From Clostridia bacterium (GTDB taxonomy: Bacteria; Bacillota; Clostridia; UBA1212): 64,000 nucleotides of DNA. Shown here piece by piece: positions 58,010 to 64,000 of the stretch. Numbering within the stretch: position 1 is the first letter of the stretch; each line of letters starts with the position of its first letter. A model generated the notes under the pieces. The model ran no database searches. It worked only from the letters and a program-made list of their open reading frames with translations, and had not been told where the DNA came from. Position numbers and translations under genes: made by a program. The stretch spans positions 1,008 to 65,007 of the forward strand of contig JAFTXP010000017.1 in the NCBI GenBank assembly GCA_017461545.1, read 5' to 3'.

Positions 58010-58954
58010 TTAATAAAACGTCACAACGTCTTCCGTCGGCGGATTTGCAAGTTCGACTTTAATTGCCTTGAGCACAGGGCCTTTGCGGCCGTAAACGCTG
58101 CAATCTTCAATGTCGATCTTTGCGGTGAGATTTATCCATTCCTTGTTTTTAATACAAGAACTGCTGTCCCACATGCAGAGCAGACCGCCGAAAGCAATAT
58201 CGTCAGCACAGCAAGTCATAATATGTCTGCCGACAATAAAACTGTTTTTGGGAAGGTGGTCGCCCTTTGCAGTCATAACTTTGAATCTGACTGTCTTGCC
58301 GGCGTATTTATCCATTTCCTCGGTAATATCTCTGTACCATAGAGCATAGTCGGTGTCTGCGATTTCAATAATCGGGGCTTCGATGTCAAAGGGCAGAGGA
58401 TCTTCGATTTCGTCCATTTCAACACGTCCGTCAACATTGTCGTAAATGATTGCGGCGCCGCGGCTTATACCTCTTACTATCTTGTGGAGCTCCATTTTAT
58501 CGATTGCATCTGAAACTCTGTTGAAAATAATCGCGTCACAGTTGTTGAGTTTATCAACAACAAGACTTCTCATGTTTGCGTTGTAGGTGAGGTATGTGTT
58601 GCTGTCCGCAAAAGACATCTCCTGATAGATGAGCCAGCTGCTCGGCATCGCTTCAAAAAACTTGTCCAGAGTCCACATGCCGTTGTATTCGACAACAATT
58701 TTTTTTGCCTTATGCTTTTTCTGCAAAGCGGCAAGCTCGAATTTATTCAGATGTTCTTCATCTTCGATAACTTCTATTGCAACTTTCGGATGAACGAATT
58801 TTGAAGGATTAAGTTCTTCTTCGCCTTCCTCGCAAAGGAGTACAAGGATGTTTCCCTTGCCGTCATTGAAACGCTCGTCCGCCAATGTCTCCTGAATGAA
58901 TTTTGTTTTTCCGGAATCTAAAAATCCTGTGAATAAATATACCGGTATCTCCAT
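58010..58954 (-). CDS. G3E-family (CobW-like) P-loop protein with C-terminal DUF1980-like CC-motif domain
   Basis: VYLFTGFLDSGKTKFI (P-loop). C-terminal FIVGRHIMTCCADDIAFGGLLC resembles the TIGR03943/DUF1980 motif. Confidence 0.6.
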   Translation of the reverse strand: MEIPVYLFTGFLDSGKTKFIQETLADERFNDGKGNILVLLCEEGEEELNPSKFVHPKVAIEVIEDEEHLNKFELAALQKKHKAKKIVVEYNGMWTLDKFFEAMPSSWLIYQEMSFADSNTYLTYNANMRSLVVDKLNNCDAIIFNRVSDAIDKMELHKIVRGISRGAAIIYDNVDGRVEMDEIEDPLPFDIEAPIIEIADTDYALWYRDITEEMDKYAGKTVRFKVMTAKGDHLPKNSFIVGRHIMTCCADDIAFGGLLCMWDSSSCIKNKEWINLTAKIDIEDCSVYGRKGPVLKAIKVELANPPTEDVVTFY

Positions 58955-58973: not shown

Positions 58974-60278
58974 TTAAATTCCGAAAAGCTCGGCAATTTT
59001 TTCTTCGTTTATATTTGAACCGATGACGCAAAGTCTGCCTGTGATATCTGCGGCACCTGTTCTTATGTCTGGCTCGCCGGGAACATAGTCAAAGTGAATC
59101 CACTTGCCGTCTTTGCCGGCAACAATTCCTTTTGCTCTGAGAATTATTCCGTATTTTGATTCTTCGGTGAAGCTTTCGAGAATATCATTTATTTCATCTG
59201 CCGTGAAAGCTTTTGTCGTCTCTCTTCCCCAGCTTGTAAATACATCGTCTGCATGATGATGTCCGTGTTCATGGTCGTGGTCGTGGCAGCCGCAAGAGCA
59301 ATGCTCACCGTGCTCGTGGTGATGATTTTCATGCTCGTGTTCATGATGGTGCTCATGATGGTGCTCATGGTCGTGGCAGCCGCAAGTACAGTGTTCGTCA
59401 TGGTCATGGTGATGCTCATGTTCGTGCTCATGCTCATGATCGTGGCAGCCGCAAGTGCAGTGCTCGTCATGTTCGTGGTGGTGCTCGTGTTCGTGTTCGT
59501 GATGGTGCTCATGGTCGTGGTGATGTTCATGTTCGTGATGATGCTCATGTTCGTGTTCGTGTTCGTGGCAGCCGCATGTACAATGCTCGCCGTGCTCGTG
59601 GTGATGTTCATGGTCATGGTGATGGTGATGCTCATGGTGGTGTTTGTGTTCTTCCATGAGCTTTTCCAAATCGCCGGAGAGAGTGTTTGTCTTTTCGACA
59701 GCGGCAAGAATCTGATCACCTGTAATATCTTTCCACGGAGTAGTAATGATAACAGCTTCTGCGTTAAGTTCTTTTACTATGCCGACACAGACATTCAATT
59801 TATTTTCGTCAATGTCATCTGTATGGCTGAGGATAACTGCGGAAGCGCTCTTAATCTGGTCGTTAAAAAATTCGCCGAAATTCTTGTGGTAAATTTTACA
59901 TTTTTTAGCATCGACAACGGTGGTGTAGCTGTTCAAAACAACATCGTCGGAAAGAACTTCCTTAGTAGCCTTTATAACATCGGTGAGCTTGCCGACGCCC
60001 GAGGGCTCAATTAATATTCTGTCGGGGGAGAATTCGTCGATAACTTTTTTTAACGCTTTCCCGAAATCTCCTACAAGGCTGCAGCAAATACAGCCTGAAT
60101 TCATCTCGGTAATTTCGATACCTGCTTCTTTGAGAAATCCGCCGTCAATGCCGATTTCGCCGAATTCGTTTTCTATAAGAACGAGTTTTTCGCCTTTATA
60201 AGCTTCTGAAATGAGTTTCTTTATGAGAGTGGTTTTTCCCGCTCCGAGAAAACCTGAAAAAATGTCAATCTTTGTCAT
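58974..60278 (-). CDS. CobW/ZigA-type G3E GTPase metallochaperone with giant His/Cys-rich insert
   Basis: FSGFLGAGKTTL (P-loop), GCICCS (CobW metal motif), IEPSGVG, and a CobW_C-like end RAKGIV...RLCVIG. aa 211-345 are a His-rich insert. Confidence 0.85.
   Translation of the reverse strand: MTKIDIFSGFLGAGKTTLIKKLISEAYKGEKLVLIENEFGEIGIDGGFLKEAGIEITEMNSGCICCSLVGDFGKALKKVIDEFSPDRILIEPSGVGKLTDVIKATKEVLSDDVVLNSYTTVVDAKKCKIYHKNFGEFFNDQIKSASAVILSHTDDIDENKLNVCVGIVKELNAEAVIITTPWKDITGDQILAAVEKTNTLSGDLEKLMEEHKHHHEHHHHHDHEHHHEHGEHCTCGCHEHEHEHEHHHEHEHHHDHEHHHEHEHEHHHEHDEHCTCGCHDHEHEHEHEHHHDHDEHCTCGCHDHEHHHEHHHEHEHENHHHEHGEHCSCGCHDHDHEHGHHHADDVFTSWGRETTKAFTADEINDILESFTEESKYGIILRAKGIVAGKDGKWIHFDYVPGEPDIRTGAADITGRLCVIGSNINEEKIAELFGI
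59244..59648 (-). repeat. Coding tandem-repeat region: (H/E/D)n blocks with 4 x EHC(T/S)CGCH(D/E)H
   Basis: Protein reads ...HGEHCTCGCHEHEHEH...HDEHCTCGCHDHEHEH...HDEHCTCGCHDHEHHH...HGEHCSCGCHDHDHEH... Confidence 0.9.
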
Positions 60279-61590: not shown

Positions 61591-61712
61591 GCATGCGGAA
61601 ACTGTGTAGCAGCCGCGTAATTATGAGATGTTATGCTGTGAGAAAAAGACAAATATTTCGTTGTGATATGGCCATAATATCAAATGAATAAAATGCACGG
61701 AGGTTTAAGCTT

Positions 61713-62555
61713 ATGAAAAAAAGAACCTTAAATGATGCTTTAATAGAAGCATTTGAATCTGATTTGCAGAATGAAGAAAAAAGTGACAATACAATAGGAA
61801 AGTATATGCGAGATGTTCGGCATTTTGCAGAATTTTTGCATGGGAGAACAGTAGATAAAACACTGACTCTTGAGTACAAAGAAGAACTCGGTCGAAACTA
61901 TGCCCCTGCAAGCGCAAACTCAATGATTGCGTCGTTAAATTCTTTTTTGCGTTTTGCGAAATGGCATGATTGCTGTGTAAAACAGTTCAAGGTCCAAAAG
62001 AAAACATACTGCTCCGAGGATACTGAGATTTCAAAATCGGAGTATATTGCTCTTGTAAATGCGGCAGAAGATAAAAGGAACGAACGCCTGTCTTTGTTAA
62101 TTCAAACGATTTGCGGTACGGGTATACGTGTAAGCGAGGTATCATATATCACGGTAGAAGCTGTGCAGAAAGGCGAAGCGACTGTTTCCTGCAAGGGGAA
62201 AACAAGAAAAGTTTTCATTGTTTCGGCTTTGCGTAAAAAATTACTGAATTACGTAAAGAAACACGGTATCAAACACGGTATTGTATTTATTACAAAGAAT
62301 GGCAAGCCGATGGATAGAAGTAATATCTGGCGTGAGATGAAGACTCTCTGTAAAACGACAGGAATATTGCCTGATAAAGTGTTTCCGCATAATCTGCGTC
62401 ACCTGTTTGCACGAACATTCTATCGGATAGAGAAAGATATTGCAAAATTGGCAGAAATTTTGGGTCACTCCAATATCAATACCACACGGATTTATATTAT
62501 ATCTACGGGTGCGGAGCACAGGAGGCGTATGGAGAGTATGAGACTGATAATATAA
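61713..62555 (+). CDS. Tyrosine site-specific recombinase (phage-integrase family, ~280 aa invertase-sized)
   Basis: N-terminal SAM-like core-binding domain. Catalytic residues in GTGIRVSE (Arg), HNLRHLFA (H-x-x-R) and GHSNINTTRIY (His...Tyr). Confidence 0.88.
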   Translation: MKKRTLNDALIEAFESDLQNEEKSDNTIGKYMRDVRHFAEFLHGRTVDKTLTLEYKEELGRNYAPASANSMIASLNSFLRFAKWHDCCVKQFKVQKKTYCSEDTEISKSEYIALVNAAEDKRNERLSLLIQTICGTGIRVSEVSYITVEAVQKGEATVSCKGKTRKVFIVSALRKKLLNYVKKHGIKHGIVFITKNGKPMDRSNIWREMKTLCKTTGILPDKVFPHNLRHLFARTFYRIEKDIAKLAEILGHSNINTTRIYIISTGAEHRRRMESMRLII

Positions 62556-62583
62556 AATCCGATGTCCGGAGAACATCGGATGT

Positions 62584-62608
62584 CACATAATCAACATTAT
62601 GTTGTATA
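62584..62608. repeat. Inverted repeat, left arm (cacataatcaacattatgttgtata)
   Basis: Perfect reverse complement of 62803..62827. Starts 29 nt after the recombinase stop. Confidence 0.95.
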
Positions 62609-62802
62609 TACAGTCAGCAAGACAGATAAATAAGTATAATAAAATAATCCTTTTGAACTTCATGAAAGAAAATAAAATCCAAAAGACTCAGTTGTTATAC
62701 AAAAATTCAGTTCATTAAATGAAAAAAAACTATTGCTTTTACAGCAAAAAAAGTGTATTCTGAAATAAAAATATTGGGTTTATGTATATATAACAATACA
62801 CT

Positions 62803-62827
62803 TATACAACATAATGTTGATTATGTG
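62803..62827. repeat. Inverted repeat, right arm (tatacaacataatgttgattatgtg)
   Basis: Perfect 25/25 match to the reverse complement of the left arm. Lies 102 nt upstream of the adhesin ATG. Confidence 0.95.
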
Positions 62828-62929
62828 GTAAAAAGTGAAGATATCTGTATTTTACGTTTATAAGCTTTCACATTTTTTAAAGAATGTTTGAGGCTTAGCA
62901 ATAAATATAAAAGAGAAAGGAAAAGGTTT

Positions 62930-64000
62930 ATGAAAAACTTAAAACGCATAGTATCATTTTTTCTTTCGCTAGTAATGATGCTTTCTATGATGAGTATTAC
63001 TGCATTTGCAGAAGAAACAGGCGAAGATACTCTGTATCAGGAGACAGATCCATATGTTTATGTTTTTATGGATTCATCTGTGGTGCCGGATGAATGGAAG
63101 GGTAAAATGGCATGGTATTTATCTTCGCATCGTCCGGAGTTCGTGTTAAAAGATAGTTATGATATCAGAGAAGGTGTTCCAACCGTAATTGCTCTGTACA
63201 ATTCCTCTGAAAATGAGATGATGAAGACATACTGTCTTGACTTGCAGGTTGAGACAGTTAGCAATACACGATATCGCCGCTTGAATCTCGAGGACAGTAC
63301 TTATTTCTCTGATGAAAATGCGGAGTTGCTGCGTGCTATCTTTCTGAACGGTTTTATCGATCCCGCAGATACTTCGGATCTTCAGAATGCTGCAAATGAA
63401 TGGCTTGCAGATCAGGGCATGGAGCAGATTACTGATTTGACAAGTGCTCAGGCACTGTCTGCTACCCAGTATGCGATTTGGCTTATTTCCGCTGAAGATG
63501 AATTTGCAGATTCCACAATATATAATGCTACTGTCCCTTCTAAAGATCGTTGGCTCGGCATGATCAAATATACAGACGACCCTAATCCAAAAGAGACAGC
63601 TGTAATCGATGATGACGGCAATAACATAACCGAAAAGAATATTACTTTATTTGCTGAATATCTTCTTAATCTGGATGGAGTTGCTCCGAGCACAGTTCTT
63701 GTAAGTGATGCAACACTTGCTGATGCGGATGCAGGCGATGCTGTACTCGAAGATGATGATACTTACAGTGTTACCGTAACTGTTAACATTGACGGTGTTA
63801 AAGATGGCGATGAGCTATACCTGACTGTGGGAAGCGGCGAAAAAACCGACGCAGGTTACGAAAAAAGCAATACAGTTGCAGTAACTGCTTCAGGCGAGCA
63901 GGCTGTTACTCTTACAGGCCTTACTGAAGAAGAAGCTAACGGAGCGCTGTCAGTAGAAATAAACGGTCAGCAGACAGGCTCTGATGTTTATATGTTTGAT
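62930..64000 (+). CDS. Secreted thioester-domain (TQXA) surface protein, N-terminal 357 aa (3' end beyond window)
   Basis: Not in the ORF track because no stop falls in the window. Signal peptide MKNLKRIVSFFLSLVMMLSMMSITAFA. Cys context KTYCLDLQ and Gln context SATQYAIWLIS match the Cys-Gln thioester domain. The frame is open to 64000. Confidence 0.75.
   Translation, partial: MKNLKRIVSFFLSLVMMLSMMSITAFAEETGEDTLYQETDPYVYVFMDSSVVPDEWKGKMAWYLSSHRPEFVLKDSYDIREGVPTVIALYNSSENEMMKTYCLDLQVETVSNTRYRRLNLEDSTYFSDENAELLRAIFLNGFIDPADTSDLQNAANEWLADQGMEQITDLTSAQALSATQYAIWLISAEDEFADSTIYNATVPSKDRWLGMIKYTDDPNPKETAVIDDDGNNITEKNITLFAEYLLNLDGVAPSTVLVSDATLADADAGDAVLEDDDTYSVTVTVNIDGVKDGDELYLTVGSGEKTDAGYEKSNTVAVTASGEQAVTLTGLTEEEANGALSVEINGQQTGSDVYMFD

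Follow-up and report, generated by a model that had tools for sequence, protein, structure and literature searches.

The stretch of DNA analysed here, called the window throughout, is the whole 64,000-nt segment of Clostridia bacterium contig JAFTXP010000017.1, and all coordinates below count within it. At 61713-64000, a cassette lies between an intact tyrosine recombinase gene and the gene of a secreted thioester-domain protein; its promoter-bearing segment, framed by two inverted repeats, most likely flips and thereby switches a thioester-type surface adhesin on and off. We consider it probable that the locus is a working inversion switch, currently in the ON state, and the reading of the locus as an inversion switch is supported at the level of the family to which it belongs. 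An initial annotation, made from the sequence alone, had proposed this layout of invertase, short inverted repeats, promoter core and surface protein gene; the layout is real and recurs across dozens of Clostridia loci.

Anatomy of the cassette and its recombination sites

The Xer-like tyrosine recombinase gene, whose product is the presumed invertase, is located at 61713..62555 on the + strand. The 280-aa protein matches Pfam Phage_integrase (E 7.6e-27) and Phage_int_SAM_1, an N-terminal SAM-like domain, and aligns over its full length to the structures of XerA (4a8e) and XerD (1a0p), with the catalytic residues R139, H226-x-x-R229, H252 and Y261 all in place in that alignment. The stop codon is separated from the left arm of the repeat by 28 nt, so that the early description of a tyrosine recombinase of about 280 aa with R/HxxR/H..Y residues, ending just before the left arm, is borne out. 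Although the protein shares the Xer fold and catalytic residues, it scores below the cut-off of every NCBIfam XerA/C/D/S or invertase model. The best Xer equivalog score was obtained with the XerA model (141.8 bits vs a cut-off of 220), and the XerD model gave 115 bits vs 330; the FimB/FimE-type invertase models NF007370 and NF007371 gave 24.6 and 22.0 bits vs cut-offs of 221 and 222, and at 24.6 bits against 221 the recombinase is not a member of the FimB/E family.

The left arm of the repeat at 62584-62608 (CACATAATCAACATTATGTTGTATA) is the perfect reverse complement of 62803-62827 (25/25 nt), and 194 nt separate the two arms. The exact complementarity claimed at the outset was confirmed. 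A scan of the 64-kb window allowing up to three mismatches returned two matches only, namely these arms, none was found in 100 shuffles (0/100), and the chance expectation of a perfect 25-nt inverted repeat is zero. No other site pair occurs in the window. The two repeats enclose a short intergenic segment, the candidate invertible core at 62609..62802 (no strand assigned), which is 194 nt long and has about 25% G+C; related cores measure 190-300 nt.

The cassette is shared by a large family. Homologues of the recombinase (43-72% identical) were found at 36 loci in species-representative genomes, all of Clostridia and including Oscillospiraceae, Lachnospiraceae, Acutalibacteraceae and other families, and at a further 37 loci on metagenome contigs; a threshold of E <= 1e-30 gives at least 8000 clusters for the recombinase family in the protein database. 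The cassette itself, a recombinase gene followed by two inverted sites, recurs at about 60 related loci from Clostridia genomes and metagenomes. At nearly every locus with enough downstream DNA, an ACATAAT-N4-ATTATGT site is present 4-200 nt past the recombinase stop, with its inverted partner 190-300 nt beyond. Adjacency at the locus, together with this linkage across some 60 loci, suggests that the recombinase would be a site-specific enzyme able to act on the repeats. The same linkage bears on the idea that the arms are the termini of a small, non-autonomous transposable element, or the attachment sites of an integrated element with the neighbouring gene as its integrase; this would account for 25-nt terminal inverted repeats that enclose a short, AT-rich stretch next to a gene of the 'integrase' family. 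However, in dozens of species the site pair always accompanies the recombinase gene at a constant spacing, it is single-copy in the 64 kb with no visible target-site duplication, inverted sites are unable to support excision, and no relatives of the cassette were found on viral contigs; we regard this explanation as extremely improbable.

Each recombination site consists of two near-palindromic 11-nt arms flanking a 6-nt centre, the arms being self-complementary at 8.5 of 11 positions on average. The left, dif-like 11-6-11 site (62580..62607, + strand; centre 62591-62596; perfect arm 62584-62608) reads ATGTCACATAA-TCAACA-TTATGTTGTAT, and the right site (62804..62831, - strand; centre 62815-62820; perfect arm 62803-62827) reads TTACCACATAA-TCAACA-TTATGTTGTAT on the minus strand. 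Inverted arms thus frame an asymmetric overlap that is identical in the two partners, as in the core site of a tyrosine recombinase. The family consensus, from 66 sites aligned from outer to inner edge, is nnacaACATAA-TnnnnA-TTATGTtGTan. Judged by sequence, this 11-6-11 anatomy is the architecture of a Xer site: the E. coli dif site is GGTGCGCATAA-TGTATA-TTATGTTAAAT (PMC2731167), and the left site of the window is identical to it at 18/28 positions.

The centres of the sites covary. The variable 4-nt centre is exactly reverse-complementary between the arms of the same locus at 36 of the 38 loci compared, the two exceptions each being off by one base; 25 different centres occur across these 38 loci and none of them is palindromic. 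For a tyrosine recombinase, the overlap regions of the two partner sites have to be identical, and if that overlap is asymmetric, the outcome is inversion. Centres that are matched within a locus yet variable between loci are what strand exchange would lead one to expect, and not protein binding alone, because overlap homology is a requirement of tyrosine recombinases and not of a protein-binding operator. This speaks against the notion that the recombinase-like or another protein binds the palindromic sites and so controls a promoter that stays in place, for instance through looping, without any rearrangement. Each arm is indeed a near-palindrome (ACATAAT-N4-ATTATGT) of a kind common in operators, but an operator has no need of identical, non-conserved centres, the catalytic residues are kept, both promoter orientations occur among the relatives and one orthologous core is flipped, as described below. 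We consider regulation by such an operator hardly credible.

Promoter direction and evidence for inversion

Nearly all cores of the family hold a single strong sigma-A promoter of the form TTGnnn-N17-(TGn)TAnAAT, preceded by an A/T tract. Between the end of its -10 and one of the sites there are typically 46-49 nt, and it reads outward across that site. Calling the orientation of the window core by aligning it to the cores of relatives was dropped, since these cores are not alignable, and a family-trained promoter model, a position matrix trained on 31 relatives, was used for orientation instead. This matrix gave a score of 10.2 at 62733-62761 on the + strand vs 2.2 for the best minus-strand match, a value of 10.2 being reached in 7/500 shuffles. 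The main candidate promoter so identified (62722..62761, + strand) is composed of an A-tract (62722-62729), a -35 of TTGCTT (62733-62738), a 17-nt spacer and a -10 of TATTCT (62756-62761), with a predicted transcription start near 62768. Its -10 ends 47 nt before the site motif, in agreement with the family mode of 46-49.

Because the family matrix puts the promoter on the + strand, the window is assigned to the ON state, and the guess that the assembled orientation may be ON is supported. Read in this way, the predicted promoter TTGCTT-17-TATTCT would face the adhesin gene, and a promoter inside the segment would read out via one of the repeats. The two -35/-10-like pairs reported earlier to point toward the adhesin are both present (TTGCTT/TATTCT and TTGGGT/TACACT). 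The second is weaker: it is located at 62774..62802 on the + strand (TTGGGT at 62774-79, TACACT at 62797-802), reaches a matrix score of 5.6 and occupies a position that is not typical of the family. The adhesin mRNA leader follows at 62828..62929 (+ strand), with a ribosome-binding site AGGAAAAGG at 62918-62926 and no promoter-like sites called within these leader coordinates.

A GC-rich, intrinsic-terminator-like hairpin (62557..62581, - strand, -18.3 kcal/mol) is situated between the recombinase stop and the left site. Its T-run (62547-62556), which is present on the minus strand only, overlaps the last codons of the recombinase. A minus-strand terminator occupies the equivalent place at 24/46 family loci and a plus-strand terminator at 2/46. 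Such a minus-strand hairpin would stop OFF-state transcripts before they enter the recombinase gene in antisense. When the core was flipped in silico, terminator candidates on the + strand were weak (about -5 kcal/mol), and no conclusion on read-through from the recombinase gene was drawn from them.

Catalysis by this recombinase, the cleavage positions, promoter activity and switching in this organism, all of which we infer, would combine as follows. Each of the two inverted, dif-like 28-bp sites is most likely bound by a recombinase dimer; the two sites would then be brought together in a synapse, strand exchange would take place where the identical TCAACA centres meet the arms, and the 194-bp core would invert. 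In the ON state, a single sigma-A promoter near the end of the core would read via the right site and the 102-nt leader into the adhesin gene. In the OFF state, the inverted promoter would aim at the 3' end of the recombinase gene, leaving the adhesin gene without a promoter, and the resulting transcript would be stopped by the hairpin and T-run (62581-62557), predicted to function on that strand only. The flipped state would carry the junctions ...CATTATGTTGTATA|AGTGTATTGTTATATATAC... and ...CTTGCTGACTGTA|TATACAACATAATG...

Orientation differs among homologous loci. The comparison of related loci suggested in the initial annotation gives, for 38 loci, about 8 with the promoter directed at the downstream gene (ON) and about 30 with it directed at the recombinase (OFF). 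One pair of loci is especially informative: the recombinase (68% identical) and the downstream gene (71%) are collinear between L046 and L052, and the cores of these two loci align in reverse only, with a local score of 30 vs 15 (shuffle mean 14, sd 2.3, maximum 25). Flipping one of the two cores in silico improves the alignment by 53 bits.

Several observations weigh against a switch that is active at this locus. The -10 of the window (TATTCT, without TGn) is weaker than that of the relatives, and a generic promoter scan counted no more sites than in shuffled sequence; such a scan by itself would not have been convincing. In this species, 5/5 assemblies from at least 6 sequencing runs are ON, a set made up of the window plus four Logan contigs of independent origin, one of which came from three samples. 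When the recombinase and the upstream lipase were looked up by exact protein match, every contig returned had this orientation and no flipped copy of the locus appeared, and the exact 25-mer arm was not found in the metagenome contig collection. The Logan contigs, built at k=31, pass both 25-nt arms unbroken, so any minority orientation must have been rare in those samples. Three other species of the family are likewise uniform in orientation (5/5, 10/10 and 8/8 assemblies), and all alignable core pairs are co-oriented except L046/L052.

These uniform orientations are the chief argument for the main alternative, a locked or fossil switch that descends from the inverton family and no longer flips to a meaningful extent, with the adhesin expressed in effect constitutively from the core promoter. 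However, consensus assemblies report the majority orientation only, and known phase switches are often strongly biased. The arms are moreover perfect (25/25), their centres are identical, and the recombinase open reading frame is intact with its catalytic residues. Uniform assemblies would fit strongly biased switches and could also come from a locked one; on balance we judge a locked switch unlikely and favour a working inversion switch.

Some contigs show irregular structures around the core. Contig L028 (JAZQGY010000036.1, 1681 nt, from a k=141 assembly) is hairpin-shaped, with a 91-nt terminal inverted duplication, and carries the 3' end of the recombinase gene on both flanks of the core in inverted orientation. 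Such a pattern would be expected if ON and OFF reads had been assembled together, although an artefact of assembly is also possible. Six metagenome contigs (L016, L018, L020, L023, L048 and L068) end 3-70 nt past the left site; such ends would fit mixed orientations, but not all of them fall at the repeat boundary. L048 was also considered together with L023/L054 as two states of one locus, with the same left site and differing sequence after it, and this was rejected because their recombinases are 76% identical and thus belong to different loci. In the P0059 species (L085, L086), numerous contigs have the left site and roughly the first 150 nt of the core in common, after which they continue into unrelated sequence and end; the divergence sets in from about +150 past the recombinase stop, 11 more similar places were noted, and it represents a structural variant within the core and no simple flip.

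The adhesin and the portability of the cassette

The thioester-domain (TED) surface protein gene begins at 62930, 102 nt after the end of the right arm, and runs off the window (62930..64000, + strand). The expected signal-peptide protein with YCLD and TQYAIW motifs is thereby found where it had been placed. Its N-terminus is signal-peptide-like (62930-63010), and the thioester residues are present as Y101-C102 (YCLD; Cys102 codon 63233-63235) and T179-Q180-Y-A-I-W184 (TQYAIW; Gln180 codon 63467-63469). QxAIW is invariant in five homologues, and Cys is replaced by Ser in one. The protein scores 30 bits against Pfam TED (PF08341; cut-off 22) and remains below the cut-off of the TIGR03934 TQXA model (19.3 bits vs 30.4). 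An identical NCBI protein, P0121, is named 'thioester domain-containing protein, partial' and is 515 aa long with TED and GramPos_pilinD1, the latter being the sole domain seen past TED before the contig end cuts the gene at residue 515. The assignment to the TED proteins is founded on the Pfam match and the name given by NCBI, together with the conservation of Cys and of the QxAIW motif. An AlphaFold2 model from a 5-sequence alignment (mean pLDDT 47.5) was too poor for a fold search, and no PDB sequence relatives of the adhesin were matched.

The closest homologue of the adhesin (56% identical) and the distant ones (about 33%) have fixed upstream regions with neither recombinase nor sites, which makes the pairing of cassette and adhesin lineage-specific, and no TED gene lies downstream of the other cassette loci in our set. 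The joining of cassette and adhesin is thus an event of this lineage and agrees with a portable switch. The initial annotation knew of no inversion switch for a TQXA thioester adhesin, and our literature search likewise found no report linking a thioester-domain adhesin to inversion or phase variation. Three independent Logan contigs of this species (L002, L003 and L040) stop at adhesin codon 398, equivalent to window position ~64123, past which the NCBI contig continues to codon 515; the shared stop suggests a repeat or a strain-variable region inside the adhesin gene. The adhesin of L040 carries many substitutions (e.g., YCID for YCLD), with repeat arms and 194-nt core identical to those of the window.

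Genes that follow other cassettes mostly encode secreted or surface proteins: BspA-type leucine-rich-repeat (LRR), dockerin, Listeria-Bacteroides repeat, SLH, Big_3, M23 and trypsin-FHA proteins, together with TetR regulators and a NusG paralogue. Among related cassettes that are 86-95% identical, the right site's outer edge lies within 0-3 nt of the point where homology ends; on the left, homology sets in ~60-73 nt upstream of the recombinase start codon, and the flanks are unrelated; one cassette type precedes five different downstream sequences. The end of homology at the edge of the right site indicates that exchange has occurred there. We tentatively suggest, as an idea that may well prove wrong, that the unit from recombinase to second site is a portable, Xer/dif-derived 'plug-in' phase-variation cassette spreading within and between Clostridia genomes. 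The unit may comprise the recombinase promoter, the recombinase, the terminator, a dif-like site, the promoter core and a second dif-like site, and new target genes may be captured via recombination at the right-hand site.

The same borders lend themselves to a further explanation, in which relocation of the cassette, or the swapping of downstream DNA, is the main task of the paired dif-like sites, in the manner of Acinetobacter pdif modules and possibly with the involvement of the host XerC/XerD. The sharp common borders of the 86-95% identical cassettes with their unrelated flanks would suit mobility, as would the dif-like sites themselves and the presence of two identical-site cassettes in one Blautia metagenome-assembled genome (MAG). 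Mobility nevertheless leaves the outward promoter, the facing terminator and the two promoter orientations unexplained, and no third recombination site was seen at the left border of the cassette. We rate mobility as the main function very unlikely; mobility and an ON/OFF role are, moreover, not mutually exclusive, and inversion remains our preferred reading.

Further features of the cassettes were recorded. A common pattern recurs upstream of the recombinase genes, in which a CGGAGGT ribosome-binding site is preceded, at a distance of about 20-30 nt, by a -10 resembling TAAAAT or TACAAT; it is located at 61640-61712 in the window and at the equivalent places of L045-L052, L069, L080, L088 and L098; this pattern is the left border of the conserved cassette. 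At some loci the right site is repeated in direct orientation 40-60 nt (or ~560 nt) further downstream, giving three sites in all, as in L088-L097 (+341 past the recombinase stop), L058 (+267 and +308) and L069, L070, L073 and L076 (+864, degenerate), which would permit alternative, nested inversions. The Blautia MAG (CAYTNV01) carries on two contigs, L032 and L033, cassettes that are 93% identical over 1.3 kb and have the common centre AAGA, so that recombination between cassettes, and hence large chromosomal rearrangements, would be possible in it. Elsewhere in the window, a gene at 58974-60278 (- strand) encodes a CobW/G3E-type GTPase-like protein of 434 aa, whose very long His-rich insert has HEHEHH runs broken by four C-x-C-G-C motifs. 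It adjoins the gene of a DUF1980_C protein (58010-58954), the GC content and AT skew of the window peak there, and the two products are probably a metal-chaperone pair.

Relation to known switches and significance for Clostridia

The initial annotation had likened the locus to fimS, to the RecV switches and to the invertible promoters of Bacteroides; the likeness holds for the working principle and fails for the recombinase, which by its model scores is not of those families. As at E. coli fimS with FimB/FimE, the recombinase gene is located directly upstream of a short invertible promoter for an adhesive surface structure, and in fimS, too, the fate of transcripts near the recombinase gene depends on orientation. 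The fimS element differs in its 9-bp repeats and its 314-bp length, and FimB/FimE, at ~200 aa, have no N-terminal SAM-like domain. The RecV switches of C. difficile (cwpV, flgB, cmrRST and pdcB) share with the locus the Clostridia host, a tyrosine recombinase and segments of ~150-200 bp before surface or signalling genes. A single RecV, however, acts in trans on many unlinked sites, and the cwpV and flgB switches act after transcription initiation with no movement of a promoter; the recombinase of the window is linked one-to-one with its own pair of sites, which are dif-like. The Bacteroides invertible promoters (Mpi, Tsr) likewise belong to gut commensals and invert promoters before surface structures, and the NusG-like gene after the L032 cassette recalls UpxY downstream of Bacteroides capsule switches, but phylum, promoter type, repeat motifs and recombinase groups are all different.

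With XerC/XerD-dif and the single-recombinase Xer systems, the cassette shares the recombinase fold, the catalytic residues, the 11-6-11 site and the core CATAA-T....A-TTATGT; with the Acinetobacter pdif modules it shares boundaries formed by opposed dif-like sites that are able to invert or move (PMC9947245). In contrast to all of these, its role is not the resolution of chromosome dimers: there are two inverted sites per cassette and several cassettes per genome, the dedicated recombinase is below the XerA/C/D/S cut-offs, and a promoter is the cargo. The Xer1/vpma system of Mycoplasma agalactiae, like related systems of other mycoplasmas, resembles the locus in having a single Xer-like recombinase beside surface-protein genes and an inversion between short sites that places a promoter before a gene (PMC2268961). 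There, one promoter is shuffled among several promoterless genes, whereas the window shows two sites, one downstream gene and a simple ON/OFF layout. We found no report pairing 'dif-like' sites with phase variation in the literature searched.

Clostridia invertons beside tyrosine recombinases are already known. A 2025 study in Microbiome (PMC11892184) describes 33 invertons, 32 of them from Clostridia and from 17 strains, nearly all beside a tyrosine recombinase. They form the intergenic 'inverton group 139' with 'invertase group 35', and flipping was observed in reads, with orientation ratios shifting over culture passages. The geometry agrees with that of the locus: Clostridium sp. D5 has a 25-nt repeat with 206 nt between the arms, and Intestinimonas a 13-nt repeat with 228 nt between. 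The family described here is likely inverton group 139, given the agreement in host class, geometry and recombinase adjacency. The passages of PMC11892184 that were consulted make no mention of likeness to dif, a covarying centre, a terminator or a thioester adhesin target, and the terminator in particular is a design feature absent from them. The locus is thus a new example of a switch type known in gut bacteria and no new kind of system.

As such, it cleanly illustrates a family of switches linked to recombinases in Clostridia that is very large and has hardly been characterised; annotation tools currently give the gene only as 'tyrosine-type recombinase/integrase'. The variable centres make the two sites of each cassette a matched pair, and the anatomy provides a simple annotation rule: locate the site motif, read the direction of the promoter, and assign ON or OFF. 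The cassettes are also compact parts for synthetic switches in Gram-positive anaerobes. If the plug-in idea is true, a single portable unit would put thioester adhesins, BspA-type LRR and dockerin proteins, peptidases, TetR regulators and a NusG paralogue under stochastic control. Thioester-domain adhesins attach covalently to host or substrate surfaces, which makes their production a commitment that is costly and exposed to the immune system; with a stochastic ON/OFF switch, one population of a gut Clostridium would keep adherent and non-adherent cells side by side.

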